DNA of 64,000 bases from an uncultured virus (IMG/VR IMGVR_UViG_3300012920_000027) (IMGVR_UViG_3300012920_000027), one strand, 5' to 3'; positions 27,726 through 64,000 are shown, numbered from the stretch's first letter. The notes: generated by a model not told the origin, from the sequence alone. A program made the numbers and translations.

Positions 27726-27939
27726 CGCATTGCAAGATGGAGGTGGCAAAAATGGGGACGCGCCCTGGCGGGCGCTGCAAGTTGGTTTTGGCCGCAAAGC
27801 GGCCCCCCGAGGCAGGTTGCTTCGGGGGGTGAGCGGTCTTTTCATCTGTCTTGATTGCGCAGTCACGGCACCGATCTCCATTCTTCGAGAAATGGAGCAT
27901 TTTGTTCCGTCCGCAGATCACACAAGTACCTCTTGGCAT
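27721..27939 (-). CDS. Small Zn-finger protein (array)
   Basis: Motif-linked ATG; CVIC...CRDC; the 3' part overlaps the hairpins. Confidence 0.6.
   Translation of the reverse strand: MPRGTCVICGRNKMLHFSKNGDRCRDCAIKTDEKTAHPPKQPASGGRFAAKTNLQRPPGRVPIFATSILQCG
27748..27830 (-). ncRNA. Three-hairpin element at the distal end of the array (small RNA or terminator)
   Basis: Follows an ATG-less ACCGCTC; stems CCCCCCGA/TCGGGGGG, GGCCGC/GCGGCC and GCGCCC/GGGCGC, then TTTTT. Confidence 0.5.
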
Positions 27940-27945
27940 GAGCGG

Positions 27946-28089
27946 TCATTCGTCTTCATCACCATCAAGCTCGCGTAGGTACGCGCCTATGTTGCTGATG
28001 TTGGTGATGAGTTGCCAATCCTCAGCTCCACGGCTGATGATTTTTGCATGTTCGATGAGTTCTTCGACTACTTGTTTTCGAGTCTTCAT
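27946..28089 (-). CDS. Hypothetical 47-aa protein (array)
   Basis: Motif ATG to motif TGA, in frame; MKTRKQVVEELIEH... Confidence 0.7.
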   Translation of the reverse strand: MKTRKQVVEELIEHAKIISRGAEDWQLITNISNIGAYLRELDGDEDE

Positions 28090-28096
28090 GAGCGGT

Positions 28097-28387
28097 TCAT
28101 TCAACGATGCGGTAGGTCATTTTCAATCGACCTTCCCATGTTGTGATGGTGAATTCGTTCCCATTGAAAGAGAGTTCCTTTGCTTTCGGTATGTCCAACC
28201 AAGACACTGTGCCGTCCTCTGGACTTTGGAGAGCCCAAGATTTCGTCTGCACCTTCACAATTGTTCTCACACCTGAAGGGTGAGGCGGGCAACTCACTTC
28301 AACGCCGTTATCGATGTTGATGTGTTTTGTCTTTTCGATTTGCGTACCTACTTGGATTGTTCGTTTCAAATCTGCAAGTGTTTTCAT
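28097..28387 (-). CDS. Hypothetical protein (array)
   Basis: Motif-linked ATG. Confidence 0.75.
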   Translation of the reverse strand: MKTLADLKRTIQVGTQIEKTKHINIDNGVEVSCPPHPSGVRTIVKVQTKSWALQSPEDGTVSWLDIPKAKELSFNGNEFTITTWEGRLKMTYRIVE

Positions 28388-28508
28388 GAGCGGATTCGTC
28401 CTCCTTGCAGGCTCCTTTCCAGCCACAGCAAGAACAACAGACACACATTGACTCTCCGCCAGGAGAGCTCTCTGCACCACAGGTGCAAGGGAAGGTCTTC
28501 TTCTTCAT
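28308..28508 (-). CDS. Cys-rich hypothetical protein (array)
   Basis: Motif-linked ATG; reads through the next motif. Confidence 0.55.
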   Translation of the reverse strand: MKKKTFPCTCGAESSPGGESMCVCCSCCGWKGACKEDESAHENTCRFETNNPSRYANRKDKTHQHR

Positions 28509-28515
28509 GAGCGGT

Positions 28516-29136
28516 TCATTGTTCGAGCCAGTGGTGTAGGTGATGGTGTTTCCGGAGTTCGTCTTGCGTCCATTCTTCCCAGCATAAGCCGGCACCGATG
28601 GACAACACCTTGACTTCCTGGCCTTCAATCGTAATCGTGGCCATGTCTTCAAGGCTCCTGGACCATTCATCTTCGACCGTTCCATCGTGGGTCTCGACCC
28701 ATCGGAAGGTTCCATCCTCCCAACTTACATCGTATCCGTAGTCTCCCTCTATTGCGTTGAAGTACTCGCATACGGCATCAAGTTGGTCAAGCGGGAAGCT
28801 GGGCGTTGCCCATCCGTTCCATCGGTCAGCGCCATTCTTTTCTGTTCCCAGGAGGTATCCGTAGGCAACAGGTCGATCGCTGAAACCGATGGGGACAAGT
28901 CGATAGCCCCCGAAGTTGGTTTCAATGTAGTCGATGGCTGATGCCCAGATCTTCGTACGGAATACGATGGCTGAATCTCTCAAGCGACAGGCAAAGCCGC
29001 CACCGGCTGGAAACGCCTTGGTGGTGCCTTGTTTGTCTTTCCTCAATTCGCGAGGGATTCGGTCAAAGCTCTCATCCCAATTGACGGCTAGTGTGTCTGT
29101 GCTGTACAGGTTTCCTGTTTTCGTAACAAGGTACAT
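28516..29136 (-). CDS. Hypothetical protein (array)
   Basis: Motif-linked ATG; contains WNGWATPSF. Confidence 0.75.
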   Translation of the reverse strand: MYLVTKTGNLYSTDTLAVNWDESFDRIPRELRKDKQGTTKAFPAGGGFACRLRDSAIVFRTKIWASAIDYIETNFGGYRLVPIGFSDRPVAYGYLLGTEKNGADRWNGWATPSFPLDQLDAVCEYFNAIEGDYGYDVSWEDGTFRWVETHDGTVEDEWSRSLEDMATITIEGQEVKVLSIGAGLCWEEWTQDELRKHHHLHHWLEQ

Positions 29137-29143
29137 GAGCGGT

Positions 29144-29389
29144 TCAAACCTCTGCCACCCAGGGCGGCCAATCTTTGTTCGTGAAGTACAGTTCACGGTC
29201 AAAGTAGCCACATCCGAGTTCCACTTGCATCACATTCGCGTCTCCAACGATTTCTTCAACAGTGATCGTTGCTCCGGATTGCTGTTTCCACTTGGCCCAC
29301 ATTTGTCCCAGTAGGTCAAGGGCGTGTTGTTCTGTTTCCCCGTAGGCTTCGAGTTCGTAGTTTCTGGTTTCAGTCCAGGCTTTCCACAT
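29144..29389 (-). CDS. Hypothetical protein (array)
   Basis: Motif-linked ATG. Confidence 0.75.
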   Translation of the reverse strand: MWKAWTETRNYELEAYGETEQHALDLLGQMWAKWKQQSGATITVEEIVGDANVMQVELGCGYFDRELYFTNKDWPPWVAEV

Positions 29390-29397
29390 GAGCGGTT

Positions 29398-29709
29398 TCA
29401 ACCCCATTCTTCAGGGTTCTTGTAGCCACAAGCCTTCAAGGCCTCTGCCAAGCCTTCTCTCGTGAAGACGAAGTGCCCCAGTCTGGGGGCAGGTTGGCCA
29501 TGGGGGCCATCGTCACCGAAAACCGTCAGTACCATGTCTTTGTACTGAATTGAAGCTGTTTCGCCAGACATTCCAGCGAATTCCCAGTAATAAGTGTCGC
29601 CCCAATAGTACTTGTTGGGAAACATTGGTAAGATCAGTTGGCTAACAATTGCTTTCAAGCATGAGTCATCTTGATGTTCTATCATCGAGTATGCTGTTTT
29701 CTCTGTCAT
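29398..29709 (-). CDS. Hypothetical protein (array)
   Basis: Motif-linked ATG. Confidence 0.75.
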   Translation of the reverse strand: MTEKTAYSMIEHQDDSCLKAIVSQLILPMFPNKYYWGDTYYWEFAGMSGETASIQYKDMVLTVFGDDGPHGQPAPRLGHFVFTREGLAEALKACGYKNPEEWG

Positions 29710-29716
29710 GAGCGGT

Positions 29717-30844
29717 TCAGGCGATCACCGGAGGTTCGTGGTGGAAGTTGAGGAATTCTTCTGCCGGCGACGATCCTGTTCGAGTCTCGTAGGCCTTCTG
29801 CAGTATTTTCCTGTTCTGGCTGTGGTGATAGCCAGTACTGTTCCATTGTCCGGTGATGTGCTTGTGCAGGGCATCGGGGTCGTCGGCGAGTTCACCGAGC
29901 GTTTGTGCATCACGGTCGAGCTCCCAGATGTTGTGGAGACCTCGTGCCGAGGTGCCGATGGCCTTGTCTGCGCTGAGGGCAGCAAGCATTTCATCGAAGG
30001 TGTAGCCGTTCGCCTTTCCGAAAGGGTAGGTGTCCTCGTCGTGGATTGACCGGAGGTGGGCTTGAGCCCATTCCTTGTCGGTCGTCGACGACGAACCTAC
30101 TCTGATGAAGCGACCAAGGTCTGCTGCCATCAGCTTGCGGGTCATGGCGTTTAGGCGCCAACTGGTTGCATCAACACATTCAGCGCCCAGCATGGTGGCG
30201 ATCTTAGCGGCGTTCATGCCGCCGGCACCAAGAAGGAAGAATTGCTTGTCTTGGGCAAGGAGTCCTTCACTCGTTTCGATAATCACTTGCCACAAGTCCT
30301 CTTTGCGAACGAGGTCGTGGCTTGAGGCATTCTTCGCTGCCCCGATGCGCGACATCACTCGTTGGGTGGATTGGGCAAGGTTTGATCCAAAGCCCACCAT
30401 TCCATCGGTGTTGTAGTTGGTCAAGTGGTCGAGAGCTTCCGTCGCATTCCGTCCGTGAATCACGGGAATGGTCTGCGGGATGGCTGCACTCATCTCATTG
30501 AACCAGGAGCAACTCGTCTGTTGACGGGTCGCAACCTCCTGGGCGCTGAGGTTCGAGAACCTGGGCACAGGAAAGTCGGCTGCGATGATGATGTCGTCTT
30601 TGTTCACTCCGATGCGGTGGTGGCTCTCAATGAGCTCATTCACATCGAATCCGACGGCTGCTTCAGGGTTCTGAAGAAAGTGGAAGCCACCCGAGTCCTT
30701 TGCGACACGGTTCTTGGTCAGCTTCGTGCTGTACCCATCTTCGAGCTTCTCGTCCACGGTGATCAGGATGGTGTCCGTTTGGTTACGGATGTCCATCGGG
30801 CGTCTGCCAATCAGGCAGGCGGTCTCACTGGTGTAATTGTCCAT
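29717..30844 (-). CDS. tRNA-guanine transglycosylase-fold protein (DpdA-like candidate)
   Basis: KDSGGFHF, AADFP, IPVIHG, VGFGS, FLLGAG and GAECVDATSW in TGT motif order. Confidence 0.75.
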   Translation of the reverse strand: MDNYTSETACLIGRRPMDIRNQTDTILITVDEKLEDGYSTKLTKNRVAKDSGGFHFLQNPEAAVGFDVNELIESHHRIGVNKDDIIIAADFPVPRFSNLSAQEVATRQQTSCSWFNEMSAAIPQTIPVIHGRNATEALDHLTNYNTDGMVGFGSNLAQSTQRVMSRIGAAKNASSHDLVRKEDLWQVIIETSEGLLAQDKQFFLLGAGGMNAAKIATMLGAECVDATSWRLNAMTRKLMAADLGRFIRVGSSSTTDKEWAQAHLRSIHDEDTYPFGKANGYTFDEMLAALSADKAIGTSARGLHNIWELDRDAQTLGELADDPDALHKHITGQWNSTGYHHSQNRKILQKAYETRTGSSPAEEFLNFHHEPPVIA

Positions 30845-30853
30845 GAGCGGTGT

Positions 30854-31099
30854 TCAGCCTTTTCTTTCGAAGTAGGCCTCAGCATCTTTGATGATGCAAT
30901 GGTTACATTGGGGCATGCATTCACAACTGTACTGGCAGTCACATTGGACCAGTCCCTTGTACGGTAAATTGAGGACATGGAGCGTCCAGTCCTTTGCTTC
31001 CCTATCTTCGCCACAATCCACACATCCAAGTTCTTCGCCGATCATCTCGACGGCTTGTTCTATGAATTTCTTCCTTTTGTACATTGGAACTCCTGGCAT
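30854..31099 (-). CDS. Cys-rich hypothetical protein (array)
   Basis: Motif-linked ATG; several CxxC/CxC pairs. Confidence 0.7.
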   Translation of the reverse strand: MPGVPMYKRKKFIEQAVEMIGEELGCVDCGEDREAKDWTLHVLNLPYKGLVQCDCQYSCECMPQCNHCIIKDAEAYFERKG

Positions 31100-31106
31100 G
31101 AGCGGT

Positions 31107-31382
31107 TCATTGAGGCATAACCAGATACCAATCGCACCCGACCACATGTGCCATACTGAACAGATGCCCGTAGCCCGGCTCACGCCAGTCTTTCGGGTGT
31201 TCTGGATCGTTGGCCAACATGCGGTACCAGGCATCAAATCGCGCCCAGCTTGATTGGGTGATTCTTGGCAGATCGTCATGCGGGTATTCCGTTTCAAGCT
31301 TGCACGCTGAATTGACGGTCAAGCCGGCTGCTCCCATTCTCGCCTTGATGGCGATGTAGAGGTCTTCTTTGGTAGGTAGCAT
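31107..31382 (-). CDS. Hypothetical protein (array)
   Basis: Motif-linked ATG. Confidence 0.75.
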   Translation of the reverse strand: MLPTKEDLYIAIKARMGAAGLTVNSACKLETEYPHDDLPRITQSSWARFDAWYRMLANDPEHPKDWREPGYGHLFSMAHVVGCDWYLVMPQ

Positions 31383-31389
31383 GAGCGGT

Positions 31390-31695
31390 TCAGTCGTCGA
31401 GGAGACTTGTCTCGAACTCGACGCGACACCATGCCTCCATGATGTACTGGAGGGTCTGGATGATTTCCTTTTCAGTCATTTCCTTGAAGACGATTTTCGT
31501 CGGGGACTCTTTGTACGGCCCCCAAGGGCCACCAAGGGTCACCTGTTCGATGTCTTCATTCATCCAAGGTCCAGACTGATATGTGGCTTCTTCACCATTT
31601 TCCTCAGCAATCCATCGTAGTGGCGATGGGTCGCCGAGGTTGCTGTTCGGCACAATGCTGAAGGTGTACTTTTTTTGTTCAACAAAAACGGTCAT
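31390..31695 (-). CDS. Hypothetical protein (array)
   Basis: Motif-linked ATG. Confidence 0.75.
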   Translation of the reverse strand: MTVFVEQKKYTFSIVPNSNLGDPSPLRWIAEENGEEATYQSGPWMNEDIEQVTLGGPWGPYKESPTKIVFKEMTEKEIIQTLQYIMEAWCRVEFETSLLDD

Positions 31696-31713
31696 GAGCG
31701 GTTTGGCGTCAGG

Positions 31714-32277
31714 TCATCGCTTGGGCAGGTGGTCGGGGTAGTAGTTCACCCAATTGAAAAGTTGGAATAACAACGATTCCTCAAGGCGAGCCCTTACGAT
31801 TGGTTTGTCGTGAAAAATTGGAATGAACTCCATCCCCAGTTCGTACACCTTATCTGTTGTCCACTTTTGGGACTTCCAAAACGGTAGAGACGCTGCACAT
31901 GATCGTGAGCCATTGGGGCGCATGAATTCGTAACCGACGGTCAGCATTCCGTTTGAATAGTACGAGCCCCAAACTCTGAGGCTGTGCTTGCCTTGTTTGA
32001 GTTCAAAAATCTGGAGCTCTTCCTCTTTCGCAAAAATGCCACTACCGATTATGTCCGTACCTTGCTCCATCTCATATGCTTTGATGGCATCTGTCCAGGC
32101 ATCTTGGATCAATCTCCTTCCTTGGCTGTCCCCTTTGTAGGGGACGCCCAAGTATTCGTGGAACTCTGCGCATGTTTCCTGGCGAAGCCAGCTTTGGATT
32201 GCTGCTTCTTGGAGTTCAGCTGTGTTTTCTACGGGTATTTTCGGCTTTGGCCACCCGTTTGCTTCGTGCCATTCCAT
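31714..32277 (-). CDS. Hypothetical protein (array)
   Basis: Motif-linked ATG. Confidence 0.75.
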   Translation of the reverse strand: MEWHEANGWPKPKIPVENTAELQEAAIQSWLRQETCAEFHEYLGVPYKGDSQGRRLIQDAWTDAIKAYEMEQGTDIIGSGIFAKEEELQIFELKQGKHSLRVWGSYYSNGMLTVGYEFMRPNGSRSCAASLPFWKSQKWTTDKVYELGMEFIPIFHDKPIVRARLEESLLFQLFNWVNYYPDHLPKR

Positions 32278-32284
32278 GAGCGGT

Positions 32285-32596
32285 TCATTCGCACAATGGG
32301 CAATCCATTGGTGCGCACGGATCATCAGGATGTTCGGGGCAATACCACCACAATCCAAAGTCTCCGTCTTCAAAGGCGAAGGCTGTGTTGTCCGGTATCT
32401 CCAGGTTTTCGTTGAGCCAAGCAATCGCTTCGTCCGCCATTTCAGGTAGATGGTCTTCATTGATTCCGTTGCCTGGGCCCCAGTCTTCAACCTTGTAACC
32501 TACTTCTTCAGCAAATTCCAGCACCCGTAGCATGTTGTACTCGGCACCGTAAGCTCCATCGAAGTGGCATCCCACATTTTCCAGTGTGAATTTCAT
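32285..32596 (-). CDS. Hypothetical acidic protein (array)
   Basis: Motif-linked ATG. Confidence 0.75.
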   Translation of the reverse strand: MKFTLENVGCHFDGAYGAEYNMLRVLEFAEEVGYKVEDWGPGNGINEDHLPEMADEAIAWLNENLEIPDNTAFAFEDGDFGLWWYCPEHPDDPCAPMDCPLCE

Positions 32597-32603
32597 GAGC
32601 GGT

Positions 32604-32843
32604 TCATTCGTCAGTGACTCGACCCATCAGGGAGTCAAAGTTCCATCCGCAAATGGTTGCGAATACCCTGTTGATCTGGCGTCTTGTGCGGGGCGTGTAA
32701 TCATCCCACTCAAGAGCGAGATTATTGATTGCCCTCACAGCGTCTGGATCCTTTTCGTCCAGGACCGCTTCGACGAATTCATTCCATAGGCCGGTCCACC
32801 AAACATCATTGTCGATGGTTTCAATCAGCTTCTGTCGTTCCAT
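32604..32843 (-). CDS. Hypothetical protein (array)
   Basis: Motif-linked ATG. Confidence 0.75.
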   Translation of the reverse strand: MERQKLIETIDNDVWWTGLWNEFVEAVLDEKDPDAVRAINNLALEWDDYTPRTRRQINRVFATICGWNFDSLMGRVTDE

Positions 32844-32850
32844 GAGCGGT

Positions 32851-33129
32851 TCAATCGGCAAATTGCTCGATTGTCGGGAATTCCCAAGTGCCATCATCGA
32901 TCCATTCGTTGGCCACGATGAGGAAGTCATCGTAGGTACGACCTTGGTCAAATAGATCACCGAACTGATTGATTAGCTTCCATGCGTGCATGATATTGAG
33001 CTTCAGTTCTTCCCACTCACCTTTCGTCGAGTAGCACGCTTCAAACGCTGCTTGGATTGTTTCAGCAATGAGTGTTCTCGCTTCATGAAGCGAGTTCTCG
33101 TGCAGTCTTCCGTTCTTCAGGATGGTCAT
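32851..33129 (-). CDS. Hypothetical protein (array)
   Basis: Motif-linked ATG. Confidence 0.75.
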   Translation of the reverse strand: MTILKNGRLHENSLHEARTLIAETIQAAFEACYSTKGEWEELKLNIMHAWKLINQFGDLFDQGRTYDDFLIVANEWIDDGTWEFPTIEQFAD

Positions 33130-33136
33130 GAGCGGT

Positions 33137-33403
33137 TCAGCTGTGATACCACAGTCGTATTCGGATGTGATCTTCATCAGAGTCAAACGGGACGAGGAAG
33201 ATTCGGGTAATGTCGACCTTCTTTCTCACTCGAGTCTTTCCCTTCGCAGGGTAAATCTCAGATTTACCTTCGATGATGTCCTCGACGATCCACTTCTTGT
33301 AGCGCTTGGGCATATGTAGCAAGTTGTCGCCGAGGATGTCCTTGACCGTCTTTGCGGTCAACACATCACCGATGTTCATGTCGATTGGTTCAATGCGGGG
33401 CAT
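33137..33403 (-). CDS. Hypothetical protein (array)
   Basis: Motif-linked ATG. Confidence 0.7.
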   Translation of the reverse strand: MPRIEPIDMNIGDVLTAKTVKDILGDNLLHMPKRYKKWIVEDIIEGKSEIYPAKGKTRVRKKVDITRIFLVPFDSDEDHIRIRLWYHS

Positions 33404-33429
33404 GAGCGGTGCTAACGGGTGCAGTCGTT

Positions 33430-34200
33430 TCAGTAGTTCCCAAAGAGCCACATGACGGCCTTCTTTTTCTTGCCAAGGTTGTTCCTGGTGACCTTTGGGC
33501 AGTAGTAGCCTTCATCGTTAGTCCAGTCTTCGTAGAACATTGGCTCAGGCGCATCTTTGCATGTGCAACCTGGACCGTCAATGTCCATGAACTCCATCCA
33601 TGGTTTGTTGAAGGTAAAATCCTCCTTGGCCAATTCAACGAGCTCTTCGTACATGTACTCCATCAATGCGCCACTGTCTGCCATCGCCCATTGACGGGCG
33701 ATTTCAATCCAGGGCTCCCAAGAGCCGAGGTCCTCGTAGTACTCCTTGATCAATTCAGGCCAGCCCGATTCATCGGGCGCAAGTCCTCTTGACCATTGGT
33801 AGCGGATCACTCCGGCCATTGCGTCGATAGCGTCTTCCATGAGGTTGTTCGCTTTCTCCATGATGTATCGTTCGGTCACCTCGGGTGATTTCCAATCTTC
33901 ATTCCACAGTACGATGTTGCTGTGATGGGTTTGTCCATCACACCAAGGGCACTTGCAGGTAAGGTTGAATTCGAGGCCGTGGGGTCCGTCGTTGTCGGCA
34001 TCCCATTCAGATTGACTGAACGAGTGTACAGAGAGTTGGGAGACTGGGAGTCGTAGATCGTACTCGTTGTGAGCACATTCCGGGCCAACCCCGAGGTAAA
34101 TCGAGATTGGATCGGTCAGCTTGCGACTGCAAACCCGACATTTCGTAGGTTCGTGTTCGGACAACAGAAAGTTGTCCACCAAAGCGTCGAGTAGCTCCAT
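33430..34200 (-). CDS. DUF6011-like Zn-finger protein (array)
   Basis: CRVCSRKLTDPISIYLGVGPEC; motif-linked ATG. Confidence 0.7.
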   Translation of the reverse strand: MELLDALVDNFLLSEHEPTKCRVCSRKLTDPISIYLGVGPECAHNEYDLRLPVSQLSVHSFSQSEWDADNDGPHGLEFNLTCKCPWCDGQTHHSNIVLWNEDWKSPEVTERYIMEKANNLMEDAIDAMAGVIRYQWSRGLAPDESGWPELIKEYYEDLGSWEPWIEIARQWAMADSGALMEYMYEELVELAKEDFTFNKPWMEFMDIDGPGCTCKDAPEPMFYEDWTNDEGYYCPKVTRNNLGKKKKAVMWLFGNY

Positions 34201-34207
34201 GAGCGGT

Positions 34208-34420
34208 TCATTCGTAGTTGAAGGAATCAAGGTACCTATCTTGAATGATCGTAGAGACCTCAGTCACGGCTTCCTCAATTTTCTTCGCGCCGAGTGTGCT
34301 GTATTCTCCCCAGGTCAGGCGCATTGACTTGTCTTGTCGCCATGTTTCACACAGCAAATCTGCTGCCATTTGCCAGCAATACTTCACTAGATTCCGGTAG
34401 ATTTTCTCATCAGGGGTCAT
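34208..34420 (-). CDS. Hypothetical protein (array)
   Basis: Motif-linked ATG. Confidence 0.75.
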   Translation of the reverse strand: MTPDEKIYRNLVKYCWQMAADLLCETWRQDKSMRLTWGEYSTLGAKKIEEAVTEVSTIIQDRYLDSFNYE

Positions 34421-34427
34421 GAGCGGT

Positions 34428-34730: not shown

Positions 34731-34737
34731 GAGCGGT

Positions 34738-56979: not shown

Positions 56980-56988
56980 GAGCGGTTT

Positions 56989-57363: not shown

Positions 57364-57371
57364 GAGCGGTG

Positions 57372-57620
57372 CTATAGGCGGTATCCTTCCTTGTCGTGAA
57401 ATGCATGGAATTCGTATCCAGCTTCGATTTTTTCAACGATTGTGAAAATATCGGTGACTTCAAGGAGCAAGTAGCAATACTTCTTTTGGCGGTCGGACCA
57501 CAATTCGGATGGTCCGTTTCGTTCAGAGTAGATCAATCCTATCGTTCCTGTGCCTTCCGGCCATTTTCCTTTCGGAGGATAGGCCCAAGCTCGATTCCCG
57601 AACTCGAAATCACTTACCAT
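57372..57620 (-). CDS. Hypothetical protein (array)
   Basis: Motif-linked ATG. Confidence 0.75.
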   Translation of the reverse strand: MVSDFEFGNRAWAYPPKGKWPEGTGTIGLIYSERNGPSELWSDRQKKYCYLLLEVTDIFTIVEKIEAGYEFHAFHDKEGYRL

Positions 57621-57628
57621 GAGCGGTA

Positions 57629-58102
57629 TCAGCCTTCGTAATCGTTCTCAAGGAACGAGGCGACGGCCTTCAACCCTTCTTCGATTGAAGGGGCTTCATT
57701 GACTTCAAACAACACAGCATCGTGCAAAAAAGGACGAATCCGCTGCTTTGCTTCATTGGTCAACTGTAACCACAGGTGGTCCGGAATTATGGGCTCTCGT
57801 TGCGCGTAAAGGCCGATGAAGTATTCCATTCCTGTTGGGGTCGCTGTTGGGTGAATCCTGAGATGACCGAACTTGCTGATTTCTTCCATCAGCTTGTTGA
57901 GGTCGGGCAACAGGTTGTCCCAGACGACCTTCTTGACAGTCATGCGAAGGTCTTGGTCTGCATCGAAGATCCATGTTTCGTCTCCATTGTTTTCAATTTC
58001 GGCGTAGTCTGTGAGGTCTTCATCCTCAACCTTCCATTGGTCGTTGAGGGTATCGAAGAAGTGTCCAGCCATAGCGCCGTCATATCCGTACTTGATGTGC
58101 AT
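57629..58102 (-). CDS. Hypothetical protein (array)
   Basis: Motif-linked ATG. Confidence 0.75.
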   Translation of the reverse strand: MHIKYGYDGAMAGHFFDTLNDQWKVEDEDLTDYAEIENNGDETWIFDADQDLRMTVKKVVWDNLLPDLNKLMEEISKFGHLRIHPTATPTGMEYFIGLYAQREPIIPDHLWLQLTNEAKQRIRPFLHDAVLFEVNEAPSIEEGLKAVASFLENDYEG

Positions 58103-58110
58103 GAGCGGTC

Positions 58111-58335
58111 TCAACCGTACTCCCAATACCAGTTCTCTCCTGCGGAGGCGGCTTCGGCAGCACGGATAACAAGGTCGAATTTGCGTTCAAGTTCAATGAT
58201 TCGTTCCTCAAGTTGCTTCAGGAAAGCGAGCCCTTTGTCGCTGTCCCAAGCCTGTTTGAGATCGTGAAGCAATTTCCCTTGCTGAATGAATCGCCACTCG
58301 AGGTCATCGATGGCTTCTTCAGTCGTTTTGTTCAT
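58111..58335 (-). CDS. Small coiled-coil protein (array)
   Basis: Variant motif ACCTCTCATG. Confidence 0.7.
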   Translation of the reverse strand: MNKTTEEAIDDLEWRFIQQGKLLHDLKQAWDSDKGLAFLKQLEERIIELERKFDLVIRAAEAASAGENWYWEYG

Positions 58336-58570
58336 GAGAGGTGTTCCAGACCTGCACCTTGTATCGTCCACCAAGAATGCTGTCCGTGAAGGTGGATTCT
58401 ACCGATTGGATGTGGTCTGGGTTCTTCGAGAGCACATTCGTCAGCGTCTGCATGGTCGTACCATGCCTCGTCGTGTTGTTGATGTGCTCAAAAATAGCGG
58501 TTGTGGAGCTTGCGCCCTCGGAATTGAGGTACTTCACAACCAGGCTCAGGAGTCTCTTTGTTTTGCCCAT
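58319..58570 (-). CDS. DUF3860-like winged-helix protein
   Basis: HINNTTRHGTTMQTLTNVLSK...ILGGRY..W matches my recollection of DUF3860; degenerate tandem motif upstream. Confidence 0.65.
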   Translation of the reverse strand: MGKTKRLLSLVVKYLNSEGASSTTAIFEHINNTTRHGTTMQTLTNVLSKNPDHIQSVESTFTDSILGGRYKVQVWNTSHEQND

Positions 58571-58606
58571 AAACGGGCATAAGCGGGAGCGGTATTTCAA
58601 AACATC

Positions 58607-59506
58607 TCATGACCATTCTGTGATGCGTGAGCCCTTGGGCTTGTTGAATCCAAGATCGTTCTTCAGCCGATCAAAGCCGGCGGTCAGGAACTCCTTGGAC
58701 ATTTCAATCCCAACGGCGAAACGGTCAGTCAGCATTGCTGCCATGCCCAGGCTGAAAGACCCTGCAAATGGGTCAAGCACCGTGTCTCCAGGGTTTGTGG
58801 AGAACTTCAGGAGCTCGATTAGCAGTTCCACGGGTTTCTCGGTTTGATGCACCTTGTTCTTGCCCATCACTCGGGCGTGCGTAAGGACATCGGGAATCGA
58901 GTTGTTGATCCTGCGTCGCTTCCCCTTGGAGAAGAACAGGATGAGTTCGTGGCGTGGTCGTCCGTTGTAGCCAAGGGAGATGACCTTCTTGTCCCAGACC
59001 CATTGAGAGTTGAATGTGAATCCAGCATTCTCAGCGAGTTTGACCTGGTTGTAGATGTAGTCAATCGTGTCTGCCTTGGCGGCGGGCATGAAACAGAAGA
59101 AGTGGCCGTTTGGCTTGAGAACGCGGTGCATTTGCGAGAACAGGTCATGGTCGAGGTCTTTGGTCTCGAAGTCCCATCCCTTGTTCAGATTGCGCTTGCG
59201 TGTCGTTCCTCTTTGCATCTGGTCATTGAGCACAGCGTAGGGTGGATCGGTGATGATGGCGTCAAAGGAATCGTCCTCAAAATCAGCCAACACCTCCCAG
59301 GCATCACCCTCGATGAGGGCACATTGGGAGTCACCAACGGTTGCGATGTAGACACCGCGCCCTACGCGCTTGAAGCATGAATTGATGTTCTCATTGAGCC
59401 TACCTCTGATGGTGGACTCCTTCTCCCCAGGGAACGCCTCGTAGATCTCCGAGAGGTGATGGGCGTTCTTGAGAAGAAAGTCAATCAATCTGTCTTTCAA
59501 AGTCAT
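58607..59506 (-). CDS. N6-adenine/N4-cytosine DNA methyltransferase (beta class) with an N-terminal HTH-like segment
   Basis: ITDPPY, HQTEKPVELL and VLDPFAGS motifs. Confidence 0.92.
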   Translation of the reverse strand: MTLKDRLIDFLLKNAHHLSEIYEAFPGEKESTIRGRLNENINSCFKRVGRGVYIATVGDSQCALIEGDAWEVLADFEDDSFDAIITDPPYAVLNDQMQRGTTRKRNLNKGWDFETKDLDHDLFSQMHRVLKPNGHFFCFMPAAKADTIDYIYNQVKLAENAGFTFNSQWVWDKKVISLGYNGRPRHELILFFSKGKRRRINNSIPDVLTHARVMGKNKVHQTEKPVELLIELLKFSTNPGDTVLDPFAGSFSLGMAAMLTDRFAVGIEMSKEFLTAGFDRLKNDLGFNKPKGSRITEWS

Positions 59507-59514
59507 GAGCGGTT

Positions 59515-59787
59515 TCAGTCAAGGAAAAAATCCCTGAGGTCATTCGGATGCCATCGGGGAAAATTGGGACCAGGATTGAGGACTTTTAGGCATTCAGCAA
59601 TGAGTTCCATAACCCTCTTGTCTCTTGATTCAATCTCCTCAGGCGTCAAATCGTTGTCTTCACGACTTCCCAGTCCGAGAGCCCACCACAAGTAGTACAA
59701 TCCGTGATCGTCGCTGTTTGCTTCCCAGTAACGAACACAAGTCCAAATTGCGTTATGTTGGCTTGGAGTCAGTTCGATTCGTTTCAT
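59515..59787 (-). CDS. Hypothetical protein (array)
   Basis: Motif-linked ATG. Confidence 0.75.
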   Translation of the reverse strand: MKRIELTPSQHNAIWTCVRYWEANSDDHGLYYLWWALGLGSREDNDLTPEEIESRDKRVMELIAECLKVLNPGPNFPRWHPNDLRDFFLD

Positions 59788-59794
59788 GAGCGGT

Positions 59795-60178
59795 TCAATT
59801 GATTGGAGCCGGCTTGAACTCACTTGGACGGGGTTCGTTGTGCTTCCCAGAGCGAGCTTGCCGGATCATCCAGCTTTCGGTTCCGACCAGAGCTGAAACC
59901 CAATCACGAGGCGACGGGATGAACCCGAAGTCTTCGAGAAGGTGTTGTTCTCCGATCCATTGAGTTGGGATGGTCTGTCCGTCGCTGTTGGTCAATGACG
60001 GCCCGAATACCTCAACCATCGTGTTGATGCCCTGGCTGTGGTGCCTGAACATTCGATGGCGGAAGTCATGGATGTGCTCCTTCGGGGCGTCAAACCATTC
60101 GTGGATGGCGAGGTAATCCTCGACTTTTCCTCCGTACTTTTGGACAGAACCCATTGCATGGTGTAGTGCGTGACTCAT
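59795..60178 (-). CDS. DUF6915-like His-rich protein (array)
   Basis: HALHHAMGSVQKYGG..EDY..IHEWFD...HRMFRHHSQG...IGEQHLLEDFG. Confidence 0.75.
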   Translation of the reverse strand: MSHALHHAMGSVQKYGGKVEDYLAIHEWFDAPKEHIHDFRHRMFRHHSQGINTMVEVFGPSLTNSDGQTIPTQWIGEQHLLEDFGFIPSPRDWVSALVGTESWMIRQARSGKHNEPRPSEFKPAPIN

Positions 60179-60194
60179 GAGCGGTAGTGAGGTT

Positions 60195-60632
60195 TCACTG
60201 GTTCTTCCATTGAGATCCCTCGGGTTGCTTATTGGGCTCCCATGTCCCGTATGCGAGACTGTCGTCTCTGAAGTCAATCCAGAACCCTTGGCCAGACGCG
60301 ATGCCATCAAAGATGGAGTCGTCGATCGGCAGGCACTCCACGAAGTCATCGCCACCTACAGCTTCACGACTCTTTTCCCAGCAATCGGGGATTTCATCAG
60401 GATCGTAACCTTGGGCGAAGATGGCTAAGGACCATTTGTTGTCGCGTTCATTCACCAGTTCTTCGGTCGAACCGGACATGATGTAAATGCCTCTGTCCTT
60501 CACAAAGTCAATGTGTGCCGTGTCCTGCATCTCTGGCTGTACGCCATATGGATCAGTCCACTTGGTAGCGTTCTTTGTGTGTTCAAAGATTGTCCTCAAA
60601 TTGTCTGAGGGCACAAAAATCAGTTGGGTCAT
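60195..60632 (-). CDS. DUF3085-like protein (array)
   Basis: VKDRGIYIMS, AQGYDP and VGGDDFVE motifs. Confidence 0.75.
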   Translation of the reverse strand: MTQLIFVPSDNLRTIFEHTKNATKWTDPYGVQPEMQDTAHIDFVKDRGIYIMSGSTEELVNERDNKWSLAIFAQGYDPDEIPDCWEKSREAVGGDDFVECLPIDDSIFDGIASGQGFWIDFRDDSLAYGTWEPNKQPEGSQWKNQ

Positions 60633-60639
60633 GAGCGGT

Positions 60640-60930
60640 TCATGCGTCCTCGTAGACGCAATTGTCCATGTTTCCGGACTGATACTCTTCAATCAGAAGG
60701 AATGTAGCTTCGTACAAAACCGTGTGGTCCATCATTTCCCAACACATTTCATTCATTTGAATGATGTTCTTGGCGAGCTTGTTCGGCAAGCTCTGTGTGA
60801 TTTCCAGCAGTTGATTGTACCATTCGGGGTCTCTTTCTTTGATTGGGTCAACTTCGTAGCCGTTGAAGACAAACTGCCTCGGCTTCTGTGTGAATTCGTT
60901 AGCTGTGTCAAGCCGTTTATTCATGGTCAT
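60640..60930 (-). CDS. Hypothetical protein (array)
   Basis: Motif-linked ATG. Confidence 0.75.
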   Translation of the reverse strand: MTMNKRLDTANEFTQKPRQFVFNGYEVDPIKERDPEWYNQLLEITQSLPNKLAKNIIQMNEMCWEMMDHTVLYEATFLLIEEYQSGNMDNCVYEDA

Positions 60931-60937
60931 GAGCGGT

Positions 60938-61138
60938 TCAGGGCTTTCGTACCTCGGTGACGGCGTGGACGATTTCAATGTCCATCTCCCAGCCACAGTT
61001 GGAGCATGTGTAGGTGTAGGTGGTTGCATCACCACCCTCCTGCTCTAGCGTTCCTTCTGCTTGGCAATGTGGGCATTGTCCGCCCCATAGTTCTCCGGGG
61101 GCGAGAGTGTCTCCTTCTTCGTAAGAATGTCGGGTCAT
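60938..61138 (-). CDS. Small Zn-ribbon protein (array)
   Basis: Motif-linked ATG; CPHC...CSNCG. Confidence 0.75.
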   Translation of the reverse strand: MTRHSYEEGDTLAPGELWGGQCPHCQAEGTLEQEGGDATTYTYTCSNCGWEMDIEIVHAVTEVRKP

Positions 61139-61145
61139 GAGCGGT

Positions 61146-61451
61146 TCATCGGCGTTGGACAAAGTCCATCGTCGATTGCCAATACGAGATGACTCCCTCT
61201 GGCCTCTCGGCCCATTCCTGTTCGGAAGGTGCTTCAATCATGTCGTAGCGCCAGTCCCAGAAAAGTTCGAGGTCAAAGTCCCCACCAAGTTTGGGTGGCC
61301 GTGCGATCTCCCAAAGGTTCACATCCAAGAACCCAGGGATTGTTTTCTCCCAGTATTCCTTCGGACTTAGCGGTGTATCAACCAAGTAAGGTTCGTTTTG
61401 GTCCCCATCTCCTGTCGTTTCAACGATGTAAAATCGCGATTCGGTGTTCAT
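61146..61451 (-). CDS. Hypothetical protein (array)
   Basis: Motif-linked ATG. Confidence 0.75.
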   Translation of the reverse strand: MNTESRFYIVETTGDGDQNEPYLVDTPLSPKEYWEKTIPGFLDVNLWEIARPPKLGGDFDLELFWDWRYDMIEAPSEQEWAERPEGVISYWQSTMDFVQRR

Positions 61452-61459
61452 GAGCGGTC

Positions 61460-62557
61460 TCAGAGACGGCGTCGGACAGCGTCCCTCAGGGCTGTGAGCC
61501 TCTGCAGGTATTCGTCCAAGTCCGAAAGGGTCTCTTCGTAGGCGTCCACGATTTGCTCGATCTTGCGTTCGACCTGCTTCTCCTTCACAAAGATGGAAGT
61601 CATGGTCTTTGGATCGTTGTCGTGGACAACAGGGACTGGCCCCGAGTAGCCGCCTCGCTTGTTCTTGCGTAGAGGCTTGATGGTTCTCCCATCCGTGTCT
61701 ACCATTGGAGGCTCCACAGGGGGTTCCAGTACATGTTCTGTTTCGACCTGGTCCGACCATCGCAAATCAAGCGTTGCGGAGGTGTCGAGTTGTTCGTCCG
61801 TCACAGGTTCGGGCTCTGCCTCTGGCTCAGGCACCACGGGGGGTTCTGGCTCAGGGATTTCAACCGATGGAGATTCCGTTTCAATCACCGGCTCTGGCTC
61901 AAGTTCCACTTCGGGAACAGGCTCAGGCTCTTGCGTTGGTTCTTCCACGGGCTCCGGCTCGGTTTCCGGCTCGGTTTCTGGGTCCTCAGGGTAGAGGATG
62001 TCCAGAGATTTCTTGACGGCTTCAGCCTCTTCAGGGGTAAGGTCCTCTTCGGATTCCTCCCAAAAGTCGTCGGCTTCTTCCTCTTCCTCGTCGTCTTCTT
62101 CCTCAAGGAGGGACGCGAGGTCACCTGGTTCCTCAAGCTCATGTCCGAGTAGCTCTTTCATGGCGAGGATCGGGTCTTGGTCGTTCTGAAGTGCTTGAGT
62201 CGCTATATCCCACAGTTCTTCGCCCCGAAGGCGCTCTTCTGCGGTCAAATCGGCCATGAACTCGGTCACGGTATCGATGAGTTCGGGTTCAGGATCAGTG
62301 TCCTTTTCCGGAGTCTCTGTTCGGTCGTAATAGCTCACGAGGCGTTCGTTGAGGACGCGGGCCATCTCAATCATTCGAGAAGTCCCTGCGGGGAATTCGT
62401 CAAACGCGCCTTCTGCGACAGCGTCTTCAAGCACAATTTTTGCGAGCTTACGCTTCTTGCGAATGCGTCTCTTCAGTTCTTCATCTGCTTCAGCCTCCTC
62501 TCGCGAATTCATTCGTTCAAGGATGCTGTCGATGTCTTGCATCATTTCTGCTTGCAT
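61460..62557 (-). CDS. Highly acidic protein with Pro-Glu repeats and a C-terminal coiled coil (array)
   Basis: Motif-linked ATG; poly-E tract and PEPE repeats. Confidence 0.8.
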   Translation of the reverse strand: MQAEMMQDIDSILERMNSREEAEADEELKRRIRKKRKLAKIVLEDAVAEGAFDEFPAGTSRMIEMARVLNERLVSYYDRTETPEKDTDPEPELIDTVTEFMADLTAEERLRGEELWDIATQALQNDQDPILAMKELLGHELEEPGDLASLLEEEDDEEEEEADDFWEESEEDLTPEEAEAVKKSLDILYPEDPETEPETEPEPVEEPTQEPEPVPEVELEPEPVIETESPSVEIPEPEPPVVPEPEAEPEPVTDEQLDTSATLDLRWSDQVETEHVLEPPVEPPMVDTDGRTIKPLRKNKRGGYSGPVPVVHDNDPKTMTSIFVKEKQVERKIEQIVDAYEETLSDLDEYLQRLTALRDAVRRRL

Positions 62558-62564
62558 GAGCGGT

Positions 62565-62837
62565 TCATAGGTCGTAGAGACCTGATTCACGGATGAGTTT
62601 CGCAGCCTTGCCGGCGTTCGGCCCGATGTAATTCGGGTTCACATCCGTTGATTCAAGTGCAGCGACAATCAATCCGAGGATGATGTTTTGGTGCTTCAGT
62701 AGCGTGAGCTTCTGTCGAGTCAAGGCGATCTCAAGAGGCTTCGTGTCCTCTTGGTTTTCTTGGGATTGCTCGGCTGCTCGATTTGTTTCCTCAAGCACTT
62801 GTTTTGCAGTTTGGATCCATTGTGGTTCAGTTTGCAT
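62565..62837 (-). CDS. Hypothetical protein (array)
   Basis: Motif-linked ATG. Confidence 0.75.
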   Translation of the reverse strand: MQTEPQWIQTAKQVLEETNRAAEQSQENQEDTKPLEIALTRQKLTLLKHQNIILGLIVAALESTDVNPNYIGPNAGKAAKLIRESGLYDL

Positions 62838-62844
62838 GAGCGGT

Positions 62845-63318
62845 TCAGTCGACGCGAATCGCGCCGAGTTCGTCGTCCCAGTAGGAACCAATCACCTTCA
62901 CCTCGATGTCCTCGATTTTGAAGTGCTTCAGGTTCTCCTGGACACAATGGACGCCATAGACGGCCATGTTGATGTTGATTGAGACTCTCCAGAGCTTGTC
63001 CCTGTAAAGGGTGATGTACTCGTAGGACTCGTGAATTGAGTCCTTGACTGGAGGAAAGCGATCTGTGCTGGTGAAAGCAAGAACCTGCCCATCAATCGTG
63101 TGATCTTCCCAAGCATTCCATGTGTTGTACAGGACGAGGAACTTCTCCTCATCAATGTCGTCATGGCTCGAGAATGTCCACGGTATGAGTTCATCGTGTT
63201 CATGTCCTTCCCAGCTCCATTCGCCAGTCTCTGGATCTCCATCGTCACCCAATTCGCCGGTGCGAGGTGGGTAAAATTGGTTCAGCAGTTCAGTTTCCTT
63301 TTCGTTGAATCTGGTCAT
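62845..63318 (-). CDS. Hypothetical protein (array)
   Basis: Motif-linked ATG. Confidence 0.75.
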   Translation of the reverse strand: MTRFNEKETELLNQFYPPRTGELGDDGDPETGEWSWEGHEHDELIPWTFSSHDDIDEEKFLVLYNTWNAWEDHTIDGQVLAFTSTDRFPPVKDSIHESYEYITLYRDKLWRVSININMAVYGVHCVQENLKHFKIEDIEVKVIGSYWDDELGAIRVD

Positions 63319-63327
63319 GAGCGGTAC

Positions 63328-63564
63328 TCAGAATCCGTTCGTGACTCCATAGTCGTGCAGGATTTCGAATATGGCTTTCAAAGCCATGACTTCGACGGAT
63401 TTGATGTTTTTTCGATTCATTCTCTCGAGGGTACCACCACAGGTGATGTCGTACCAAGAAAGAACTCGGAAAAGTTGTCGAGTCAAGGCTGGTCCATCAG
63501 GACCATCCCATGGACCGGTGTTTTCCTCCAACCAATCGTCGAGTTGAGCGTGTAGTGCTTTCAT
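63328..63564 (-). CDS. Hypothetical protein (array)
   Basis: Motif-linked ATG. Confidence 0.75.
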   Translation of the reverse strand: MKALHAQLDDWLEENTGPWDGPDGPALTRQLFRVLSWYDITCGGTLERMNRKNIKSVEVMALKAIFEILHDYGVTNGF

Positions 63565-63578
63565 GAGCGGTTCCTGTA

Positions 63579-64000
63579 TCATTCTGCACACCAGGTTGCG
63601 TCGGCAGGCCATTGATGGTAGATGTAATCTTCATTCAATTCGCCGGAATCAAGGAACTTAGGGCCGTGGTACGATGCCGATGCGTGGTACGCATGGGGCT
63701 CGACATCGACCAGCTCAAGGGTGAGGGCGACGATCAGTTCCTTGAACATTTGATCGGTCATCGTCGTACGCCCACCGATGTGGAGGTTGTCGTCTTCTCC
63801 TTTCCAGTCGTAAATGGTGAATTGCTGACCACGGTAACGGCCCCAGAAGTTCACGGATGACTTGTACCCATCGTAAATCGGGTATTGTCCAGATACCGTG
63901 ATCAATCGGGCCACCGTTTCAGCGAAGGAGTAGGGAAGTGGTTGCCACAACCCTACCCGGCTCGTGCCAGTCATTTCGCCAGCACGCCATTCAATTTCGG
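63579..64000 (-). CDS. Hypothetical phage-type protein, 5' end beyond the window
   Basis: Frame open to the right edge; FTIYDWK...HIGG. Confidence 0.7.
   Translation of the reverse strand, partial: EIEWRAGEMTGTSRVGLWQPLPYSFAETVARLITVSGQYPIYDGYKSSVNFWGRYRGQQFTIYDWKGEDDNLHIGGRTTMTDQMFKELIVALTLELVDVEPHAYHASASYHGPKFLDSGELNEDYIYHQWPADATWCAE

Follow-up and report, generated by a model that had tools for sequence, protein, structure and literature searches.

A seven-nucleotide word fused to the start codons of a long gene array in marine viruses with archaeal-type genes: a possible initiator-type promoter

Genomic Characterization

The DNA examined here is a 64,000 nt stretch (the window) of the uncultured virus IMGVR_UViG_3300012920_000027, and its most conspicuous feature is a minus-strand array of small genes whose start codons lie within one recurring 10-mer, ACCGCTCATG, which is ACCGCTC followed by ATG and reads CATGAGCGGT on the plus strand. 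Judged from its genes, the contig belongs to a virus of ~128 kb with archaeal-type genes. The left 27.9 kb of the window carries large minus-strand genes that have no Pfam or PHROG matches and are presumably structural, together with a plus-strand block encoding RusA, RNase H, and an 848 aa homologue of RNA polymerase subunit A″ (Rpo1C). Transcription of the array would proceed from 64000 towards 27721. The main features are as follows:

27721..64000, minus strand: array of at least 91 motif-led units (84 exact and 7 one-mismatch copies of ACCGCTCATG), running off the window's end
63562..63571, minus strand: 5′-most exact motif copy in the window
27937..27946, minus strand: 3′-most exact motif copy
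29707..29719, minus strand: example of the commonest junction, TGA stop, ACCGCTC, ATG
58607..59506, minus strand: DNA methyltransferase array gene
36164..37108, minus strand: PAPS-reductase-like array gene (second copy at 49323-50438)
24930..27476, plus strand: RNA polymerase A″ (Rpo1C) homologue, 848 aa, convergent with the array end

Array Motif and Layout

On the plus strand, CATGAGCGGT is present in 84 exact copies between 27937 and 63571, with none on the other strand, against a mean of 0.15 copies and a maximum of 2 in 100 dinucleotide shuffles. Allowing up to one mismatch gave 91 minus-strand sites versus a single one-mismatch site on the plus strand, in agreement with the initial annotation of this DNA, which had counted about 90 copies in one orientation. 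The seven one-mismatch variants (ACCTCTC twice, ACAGCTC, ACCACTC, GCCGCTC, CCCGCTC, and TCCGCTC) all retain CTCATG. Every one of the 91 sites opens an open reading frame (ORF), ranging from 28 to 375 aa with a median of 100 aa, and the mean unit length is 391 bp (35625/91), close to the 400 bp first estimated. Over the 90 junctions between these units the distance from stop codon to ATG is 7 nt at 41 (about 40 had been noted), 8 nt at 13, and 6 nt at 6, with overlapping genes at five junctions (10–44 nt) and gaps of 89–447 nt at four. Each of the ten positions carries 2 bits of information, and positions outside them almost none save at the stop codon; the motif has no dyad symmetry. The 7-mer ACCGCTC itself is found 89 times on the array strand from 27.7 kb on, followed by ATG in 84 cases and by GTG or TTG in none; the exact 10-mer sites start with ATG by definition. 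No exact copy of the 10-mer is found within 1–27.9 kb, consistent with the earlier observation that no gene there starts with the motif.

The TGA stop codon had been proposed as part of the signal and can be set aside, as TGA is the general stop of this genome (it also ends 22 of 24 non-array ORFs) and relatives of lower GC content have TAA in its place. Shine-Dalgarno (SD)-like words lie upstream of 5 of the 91 array starts, which equals the background of 5.6%, compared with 7 of 25 naive longest-ORF starts in 1–27 kb, confirming that the array genes mostly do without the ribosome binding site used in that part of the genome. GAGGTG-type sites are visible before several late genes. The first codons of array genes are A/T-rich, and the array coding strand holds 15 runs of five or more T against 9 expected. 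No A+T rise or TATA-like signal was detected near −26, and the profile is flat from −80 to −8 in four sets of sites (84, 87, 119, and 71 sites); neither a TATA box near −26 nor a B recognition element (BRE) upstream of it is seen at the motif sites. With positions −20 to −40 lacking any such rise or other signal, the motif is not a canonical archaeal promoter. Searches of the window with Rfam (gathering thresholds) and ARAGORN gave no match and no tRNA.

Array products are mutually unrelated, as the initial annotation had stated, save for one site nested in another gene and one weak pair, the PAPS-reductase-like proteins, among the 91 products. Pfam matched 8 of 90 products at E ≤ 0.001, with five passing the curated cut-off, and PHROG matched 9 of 88 at 1e-6, leaving ~90% of array genes without a known family. 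The only named functions are the DNA methyltransferase and the two PAPS-reductase-like proteins. These genes without a family are likely host-takeover or anti-defence genes. A few ORFs within or at the end of the array have no motif, such as 27444-27881 (−) and 58319-58600 (−), the latter having a homologue in the array of the first relative described below.

Relatives and Lineage Specificity

Three further genomes were used for comparison. G001 (IMGVR_UViG_3300020446_000001) is 127,570 bp with direct terminal repeats, is 100% complete by CheckV, has a GC content of 0.43, and is collinear with window 1–27.9 kb at 45–80% amino acid identity. G002:C65 is a complete 128,049 bp contig with the gene set of G001, binned in a 1.5 Mb metagenome-assembled genome (MAG) titled Methanobacteriota archaeon. 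The third, G033 (IMGVR_UViG_3300017746_000001; 128,784 bp, terminal repeats, GC 0.42), was reached via an alignment of the A″-like family and represents a sister lineage with the same genome plan, sharing 33% identity in A″, ~29% in a protein resembling transcription factor B (TFB), 52% in the thermosome, and 43% in a serine recombinase. Going by gene content, these form a family of ~128 kb marine viruses with archaeal-type information genes, and archaea are probably the hosts.

G001 contains 87 exact copies of ACCGCTCATG on one strand at 11.9–54.0 kb and none on the other, and G002:C65 contains 91 at 24.7–68.2 kb. Further arrays, found in metagenome contigs with a double-motif pattern, have GC contents of 0.39, 0.41–0.43, 0.47–0.49, and 0.52 and carry the identical 10-mer with unconserved flanks. 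In G033 there are no copies of ACCGCTCATG; instead, 60 copies of ACTGACCATG lie on one strand at 73.7–113.9 kb, and ACTGACCATG is absent from the window, G001, and G002:C65. The two words, ACCGCTC and ACTGACC, have A1, C2, G4, C7, and the ATG in common. The G033 array is on the minus strand, its units are longer (median 145 aa), many of its sites are preceded by short hairpins, and its consensus extends to ATGGCA. In the window, G001, and G033, but not in G002:C65, folding of the 45 nt upstream of the motifs is more stable than that of controls; folds with a minimum free energy (MFE) ≤ −10 numbered 39 vs. 26 vs. 19 in the window, 19 vs. 6 vs. 5 in G033, and 14 vs. 19 vs. 6 in G002:C65.

If the motif were a generic start context of the host, it should be frequent in host genomes. 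The rest of the MAG holding G002:C65 (1.37 Mb) has 2 copies of ACCGCTCATG, and 30 related genomes have 115 copies versus 87 for a reversed control word, so that the candidate host clade shows no enrichment of the motif. The 16S rRNA of this clade ends in GGATCACCTCCT, which fits the GGAGGTG sites of late genes. Neither GAGCGGT, AGCGGT, nor a G·U-tolerant 7-mer was found in six full-length 16S rRNAs, and the exact words are likewise absent from four partial ones; the only 6 nt G·U match, AGUGGU near position 481, pairs within the rRNA itself with ACCGCU near position 27. The motif thus has no SD-type complementarity to the 16S rRNA of this tentative host clade. Because the motif is unenriched there and the 16S rRNA lacks its complement, and because the same word is kept over a 13-point range of GC content with another word in the sister lineage, its reader is probably encoded by the virus.

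An assembly chimera joined at this k-mer had been named as a possible artefact. The same layout recurs in an IMG/VR genome, a MAG contig, many metagenome contigs, and the Logan contigs of four runs from four studies, and these independent assemblies eliminate that explanation. Matches to the double-motif pattern in high-GC metagenomes and nearly all of those in bacteria turned out to be unrelated tandem coding repeats with periods of 27–126 nt; the bacterial false positives of the motif search include loci L259, L264, L284, L288, L295, L311, and L325. Searching IMG/VR with the 14-mer TGAACCGCTCATGA returned 123 loci, among which the multi-copy ones were all in G001 save one locus with two copies. 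The A″ protein had no match among INPHARED phages or in a scan of IMG/VR, a scan of IMG/VR with alignment A1 found only G001, and a thermosome scan of genome contigs confirmed no relative. A third A″-like lineage (P0018-P0024) has 25–27% identity and is encoded on contigs as long as 130 kb.

Units Without a Motif-Led ORF

Five copies of ACCGCTC in the window array lack the ATG, each of them following a stop codon or lying near a gene end: three are ACCGCTCAC (50780, 51660, and 27837), one is ACCGCTCGC (56986), and one is ACCGCTCCC (58593). Four of the five open the four long gaps of the array, where GC content reaches 0.58, and the fifth (27837) opens the terminal hairpins:

50592..50780, minus strand: 189 nt unit without a motif-led ORF, starting with ACCGCTCAC (50774-50780 plus AC) directly after TGA and ending at the variant ACCACTCATG (50589-50598)
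51222..51660, minus strand: GC-rich (0.58) unit of ~430 nt, starting with ACCGCTCAC (51654-51660) and followed by the next ACCGCTCATG
56900..56986, minus strand: short unit starting with ACCGCTCGC, its first ~30 nt conserved in G001 (position 44321)
58587..58593, minus strand: ACCGCTC then CC, after a stop, in a 271 nt stretch with a motif-less ORF
27763..27837, minus strand: last array unit, ACCGCTCA then two GC-rich hairpins (MFE −32.8 kcal/mol over 75 nt), with a T5 run at ~27752

The array ends in the same way in the window, G001, and G002:C65, with ACCGCTCA and then a strong hairpin, and the first stem of this hairpin shows compensatory changes between the window and G001. Counting all three genomes there are 19 non-ATG copies within the arrays (5 in the window, 6 in G001, and 8 in G002:C65), which precede non-coding or leadered stretches, and 15 of them are followed by A and 3 by G. 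This leaves ACCGCTC followed by a purine as the invariant core, with C at −1 and a purine at +1, as at transcription start sites, which commonly follow the YR rule of a pyrimidine before a purine. Because stretches that do not code are also led by ACCGCTC, the word marks where RNA units begin, coding or not, rather than translation alone, and it fits an RNA 5′-end signal better than a translation signal. This goes some way against one role offered in the initial annotation, that of a translation signal independent of SD pairing, which is further weakened by the missing 16S complement in the candidate host clade. The broader suggestion of a dedicated unit-delimiting system stands up well, given that coding and non-coding units alike are delimited by the motif and that it is specific to the lineage and unenriched in the clade of the candidate host. 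The initial annotation had recognized neither the archaeal-type nature of the virus, with transcription factors of its own, nor the different 7-mer of the sister lineage.

At the 5′ end of the G001 array, which adjoins the divergently oriented TFB-like gene, the order is a 122 nt tandem repeat, the first ACCGCTCA, ~800 nt of GC-rich and apparently non-coding DNA, and four ACCACTCATG-led genes with hairpin-rich spacers. The repeat has 4.2 copies with 95% matches and occupies locus L126 17594-18107 (G001 57.6–58.1 kb), between the start of the TFB-like gene and the first ACCGCTCA. The equivalent region has a 145 nt repeat of 1.8 copies in G033 and no repeat in G002:C65. This region of G001 could be a promoter/enhancer region or an origin, and the ~800 nt stretch directly after the first ACCGCTCA (L126 ~16770-17590, minus strand) may be a long structured RNA. 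The second word, ACCACTCATG, has 11 copies on the G001 array strand, 2 in G002:C65, and the one already listed in the window.

Transcription Proteins and Other Genes

The A″ homologue matches PF04998 at 4.8e-22, with 79 bits against a cut-off of 28.5. Its best sequence matches in the PDB are archaeal Rpo1C (1.6e-20), and the top Foldseek matches are Rpo1C chains. It contains Rpb1 domain 5, with R..FHYAG invariant in 13 family members; we take this segment, of consensus LRTFHYAG, to be the trigger loop. Large Cys-rich inserts set off the viral protein, in which C369, C372, C453, C456, and GGGWWN are invariant. The family comprises ~14 protein clusters, all of them metagenomic and on contigs of 94–136 kb. 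The A″ homologue is a candidate for part of the motif's reader.

An A″ homologue is present in all four genomes examined and a TFB homologue in all three complete ones, the window not covering the region of the TFB-like gene. In G001 this gene (L126:18114-19205, plus strand, 363 aa) lies beside the array 5′ end; it is found at ~71.6–72.8 kb in G002:C65 and ~116.1–117.1 kb in G033. Only 10 homologues, none of them named, were found among 5.8 billion clustered proteins. The structure of the G001 protein was modelled from an 11-sequence alignment, and the best Foldseek match of the model is the Pyrococcus woesei TFB core (1d3u_B, E 4.2e-7, TMt 0.71, 21% identity), with over 30 TFIIB/Brf chains next at E ≤ 1e-3. 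The predicted core, with a pLDDT of 80–90, contains the two cyclin-like repeats of TFB. Upstream of the core, where TFB would have its zinc ribbon and B-reader/linker, C21, C30, and C55 are invariant across the 11 sequences and C52 nearly so, and GKQRNR is invariant before the first helix; the G033 protein has CPVG..C / CPVC and SQRNR.

G001 also encodes glycosyltransferases and a group II chaperonin (L128:7010-8551, minus strand) closest to archaeal thermosomes; the relevant section of PMC5332604 reports a group II chaperonin for putative marine group II archaeal viruses. A serine recombinase (L127:12020-12817, minus strand; Resolvase domain, 8e-37) is conserved in G002:C65 (61%) and G033. 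A 2464 aa protein (L128:8514-15908, minus strand) that is partly conserved in G002:C65 and G033 contains DUF5824, an ATP-dependent DNA ligase, a TFIIS-type zinc ribbon, and an FGase-like region.

A crude k-mer count of non-array intergenic DNA found no second repeated promoter-like motif of comparable prominence, only GGGACTAC, which has 8 copies in the window versus 0.74 expected (12148, 13439, 14008, 14476, 16567 (−), 20809 (+), 40874, and 49743). Five of these fall in 12.1–16.6 kb close to where late genes start, one of them lying 5 nt ahead of the ATG at 13434, and GGGACTAC may be a second regulatory word.

Gene Shuffling at the Motif

Reciprocal best hits in G001 were found for 48 of 91 array genes at a mean identity of 56%, and 11 of 47 successive pairs are collinear. 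The comparison with G002:C65 gave 37 reciprocal best hits and 2 of 36 successive pairs collinear. Genome parts outside the array are collinear.

Parts of window 44–54 kb are contained in 24 DNA runs from 13 studies. Logan contigs of four runs (four studies) were compared with window 40001–60000, and showed five clean one-unit deletions in which the junction is ambiguous over 10–12 nt of the motif, as well as a 123 nt insertion:

45436..45650, minus strand: unit lost, 65 aa gene plus one motif copy; X2, X3, X8; joint 45435>45651, ambiguous over 10 nt
57361..57617, minus strand: unit lost, 82 aa gene; X3, X4, X8; joint 57360>57618, ambiguous over 10 nt
59503..59783, minus strand: unit lost, 90 aa gene; X2, X3, X8; joint 59502>59784, ambiguous over 12 nt
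55144..55236, minus strand: mini-unit lost, 28 aa ORF; X4; joint 55143>55237, ambiguous over 10 nt
43277..43501, minus strand: unit lost, 71 aa gene; X4; joint 43276>43502, ambiguous over 12 nt
54484..54497, minus strand: motif copy with the 123 nt insertion point 3 nt away (54496); X2, X3, X8

Two motif-bounded replacements (41802>42130, carrying 351 different nt, and 44081>44493), a long-range joint (55131>40473), and loose ends with the motif next to other genes were also observed. Units are therefore gained, lost, and reordered whole, and the breakpoints lie in the motif, which is the pattern that the initial annotation had proposed to look for in relatives and read variants. The joints 57737>57795/57806 and 55512>55519 lie inside genes and were set aside as ordinary indels. 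Under any reading of the motif, identical repeats of 10–13 nt are enough to produce the observed deletions by slippage or microhomology.

Interpretation of the Motif

The reading we favour, which we hold tentatively and consider quite possible rather than probable, is that ACCGCTC followed by A acts as an initiator-type promoter specific to the virus. The resulting mRNAs would be leaderless, and recombination between the motif copies would be a by-product. RNA synthesis would start at the A after ACCGCTC, which is the A of the ATG in ~95% of units, and each small gene would be expressed as a leaderless mRNA needing no SD site. The motif would be read neither by host TBP/TFB at a TATA box nor by the ribosome; virus-encoded transcription proteins would read it instead, most likely the viral TFB homologue acting on the host RNA polymerase, into which the viral A″ subunit may be swapped. 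Recombination or replication slippage between the 10–13 nt copies would then delete, insert, and reorder intact genes, and the array would be a hyperplastic store of accessory, probably early, genes. In favour of a promoter are the 20 bits of exact conservation, the zero spacing to the ATG, and the lack of SD enrichment. Further support comes from the C/purine core, from non-coding units that also begin with the word, from its re-keying between lineages, from viral transcription proteins in every genome examined with no other conspicuous motif for them to serve, and from a partial hairpin tendency ahead of the motifs. A minimal promoter and an RNA cut site had both been suggested at the outset, and both fit; we prefer the promoter because the virus family encodes homologues of TFB and RNA polymerase A″. 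In addition, oligo-T runs terminate archaeal transcription, and a single 36 kb transcript is unlikely for an archaeal polymerase because of the 15 T5+ runs on the array coding strand.

A number of points weigh against this promoter reading. TFB-family factors are known to recognize the BRE, beside a TATA box at about −30, rather than DNA at −7 to +1, and nothing is conserved at −20 to −40 of the motif sites. Most junctions are 6–8 nt and leave no room for a terminator, and 90 promoters would therefore give nested read-through transcripts. The link of TFB and A″ to the motif is a co-occurrence in four genomes with two motif types only. For the TFB-like protein, the Pfam TFIIB repeat scores 23.0 bits, just under its cut-off of 23.6, and the N-terminal part of the model is of low confidence (pLDDT < 50). 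The catalytic D[FYWLIVM]D[GA]D is found in no frame of G001 or the window, and no further RNA polymerase domain was detected at E ≤ 1 in the 13 large proteins scanned; with the A″ homologue the only subunit found, the virus, judged by its gene complement, cannot transcribe on its own. Assignment to an archaeal host is tentative, based on the archaeal-type genes and on one contig (G002:C65) binned in an archaeal MAG, and the viral thermosome is only 37–40% identical to thermosomes of the MAG clade, which makes it uninformative as a host link. Lastly, none of the runs containing window 44–54 kb is on record as RNA.

A serious rival, though on balance we think it unlikely, is that the motif is an RNA-processing site: long precursors made from one or a few upstream promoters would be cut at ACCGCUC/A by a virus-encoded or virus-guided endoribonuclease into leaderless mRNAs and non-coding RNAs, with recombination again a by-product. 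Junctions of 6–8 nt without terminators suit one long transcript, and this explains the tight packing better than a promoter does. Such processing would also account for the motif standing before the terminal hairpin and non-coding units and not just before genes, and a lineage-specific 7-mer suits a virus-encoded reader. The main promoter could lie in the repeat-rich region adjoining the G001 array 5′ end, the hairpins upstream of motifs (G033 and G001) would protect new 3′ ends, and an RNase could hide among the ~90% of array genes without a family and many others. Precedents include MazF cutting that produces leaderless mRNAs, T4 RegB, and the tRNA punctuation of mitochondria. Against this, no candidate nuclease was identified. 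An anti-motif guide RNA was not found either, copies of the complement being few and unconserved in position. The T5+ runs would hinder a 36 kb archaeal transcript, and the viral TFB and A″ homologues would be left without a visible target motif.

Two other roles are in our view improbable, and to a similar degree. In the first, ACCGCUC would hold terminating or internally loaded ribosomes for a restart at the adjacent AUG of a polycistronic mRNA. Termination-reinitiation is known in archaea and bacteria, and the stop codon lies 6–8 nt before the ATG in 60 of 90 junctions, with no SD enrichment and with A/T-rich first codons at the array starts. However, the adjacent stop is also expected from simple compaction, with TGA being the genome's general stop, and the motif is retained where the upstream stop is 89–447 nt off or the genes overlap by 10–44 nt. 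The 19 in-array copies of ACCGCTC without ATG precede non-coding stretches in all three lineage-I genomes, and a different 7-mer is used in the sister lineage. For the candidate host clade, a 16S complement is present in none of six full-length sequences (G·U allowed) and no exact one is present in four partial sequences, and Pfam found no viral ribosomal protein or initiation factor.

In the second, the motif would be primarily the DNA crossover site of a dedicated cassette-shuffling system, with integron-like capture and excision of ORFs, perhaps by the serine recombinase. The shuffling itself is well documented here: there are five whole-unit deletions with the junction in the motif, the insertion, the replacements, and the long-range joint from four studies, array order is near random (11 of 47 and 2 of 36 pairs) when other genome parts are collinear, and the recombinase is conserved in three genomes. 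That part of the original integron-like proposal stands, but no attC-like structure or tyrosine integrase accompanies it. A 10 nt asymmetric word without dyad or flank conservation is unlike any known serine or tyrosine recombinase site, and because this word is fused to the ATG we place its primary role in expression. A crossover site would leave the zero spacing to the ATG and the expression of SD-less genes unexplained. In G001, ~18 kb separate the recombinase gene from the array, and the enzyme may act in replication or integration; direct repeats of 10–13 nt delete by slippage or microhomology without a dedicated enzyme.

Some other strand-tied DNA mark (a nicking, modification, replication, or packaging site) that happens to sit at gene starts is very improbable: it would suit the strict strand bias (84 to 0 in the window and 87 to 0 in G001), the DNA methyltransferase within the array, and CCGCTC, the recognition word of a type IIS enzyme, but the bias follows from the common gene orientation, and the fusion to ATG in 84 of 89 copies and the limit to one third of the genome would go unexplained.

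Returning to the initiator-type promoter, a bolder version would have the virus supply its own TFB and swap the A″ subunit of the host RNA polymerase, and the rebuilt enzyme would start at a TATA-less 7 nt initiator fused to ~90 start codons, making each gene a self-contained leaderless cassette. The same word would be the designed seam for cassette shuffling of anti-host genes at the strain level, and sister lineages would have re-keyed both word and factor. We regard this full scheme as doubtful.

Comparison with Known Systems

No literature on this array layout, or on a virus-encoded TFB or RNA polymerase subunit in archaeal viruses, was found in open-access PMC and bioRxiv full text, and the matches to the motif strings, among those listed, were primers or barcodes, with none concerning a virus array. 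Parts of RNA polymerase are generally described as missing from archaeal viruses. If viral TFB and A″ do read the motif, this family would be the first among archaeal viruses known to reprogram transcription by means of a basal factor and a polymerase subunit of its own. Should RNA 5′ ends be set by the motif, the array would be a test-bed for TATA-less start choice by archaeal-type polymerases, for how leaderless mRNAs are made and used at scale, and for transcription takeover by viruses of uncultured marine archaea. The 10-mer also gives an annotation rule for this virus family, as it locates each accessory gene and its exact start. That a minimal seam of 10–13 nt suffices for whole-gene shuffling bears on the turnover of viral ORFan stores.

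Integrons resemble the array in being long and one-directional, with unrelated, mostly promoterless-looking ORFs and whole-unit shuffling at a repeated boundary, and whole-cassette gain, loss, and reordering were indeed observed. Unlike an integron, the array has no tyrosine integrase, attI, or Pc, and its boundary is 10 nt long and part of the start-codon context. The imperfect inverted repeats of ~60–140 bp that define attC are absent, the junctions being mostly 6–8 nt without dyad. Pfam found no IntI-type integrase in 26 window ORFs and 76 non-array G001 ORFs (four border-crossing G001 ORFs left out).

E. coli MazF cuts at ACA before AUG, and T4 RegB at GGAG. Both are alike in that a short RNA word by the start codon is the target and changes use of the AUG, but those words are 3–4 nt and not limited to one array, whereas the array motif is 7 nt plus ATG. 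Alternative archaeal TFB paralogues act as promoter-specificity factors, and an extra TFB-family protein could similarly redirect RNA polymerase to a gene class; the difference is that here it would be virus-encoded and the gene class lacks TATA/BRE.

The closest functional analogues are the short initiator promoters of large eukaryotic viruses, such as poxvirus late TAAATG, baculovirus late TAAG, and mimivirus AAAATTGA. These are short, conserved, virus-specific words at or before many genes, some overlapping the ATG, with virus-encoded readers, and as in the poxvirus late class a short word overlaps the ATG at many array genes of one class. Those viruses have complete RNA polymerases and eukaryotic hosts, in contrast to the A″ and TFB homologues found here, and the array genes share one orientation, are packed with 7 nt between them, and would have mRNAs with no leader at all.

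PeSL (promoter-early stem-loop) cassettes of T4-type phages, reportedly also the subject of Comeau et al. (2014), come closest among the concepts described so far. As described in the relevant parts of Arbiol et al. (2010; PMC2839356), recombination between repeated promoter/stem-loop elements shuffles ORFan genes: small repeated elements flank non-essential ORFans in hyperplastic regions, and recombination between copies inserts, deletes, or replaces whole genes. Whole-gene indels and replacements of this type were found between close relatives of the window (the five deletions, the insertion, and the motif-bounded replacements). In the same account, PeSLs are scattered and consist of sigma-70-type promoters and terminator stem-loops used by the host polymerase, whereas the array has a 7 nt word fused to the start codon at ~90 consecutive genes. 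No host-type promoter and terminator stem-loop accompanies each motif copy, given that no TATA/BRE-like signal and only a modest fold excess were seen. The array thus differs in having no canonical promoter and at most a weak hairpin tendency, in being lineage-specific, and in belonging to a virus with archaeal-type transcription genes. What is new relative to these systems is a 7 nt word fused to the start codon at 60–100 consecutive genes without a canonical promoter, with lineage-specific words and with TFB and A″ homologues. We read it as a virus-specific start signal doubling as a shuffling seam, and there is a substantial chance that the machinery behind it is itself new.

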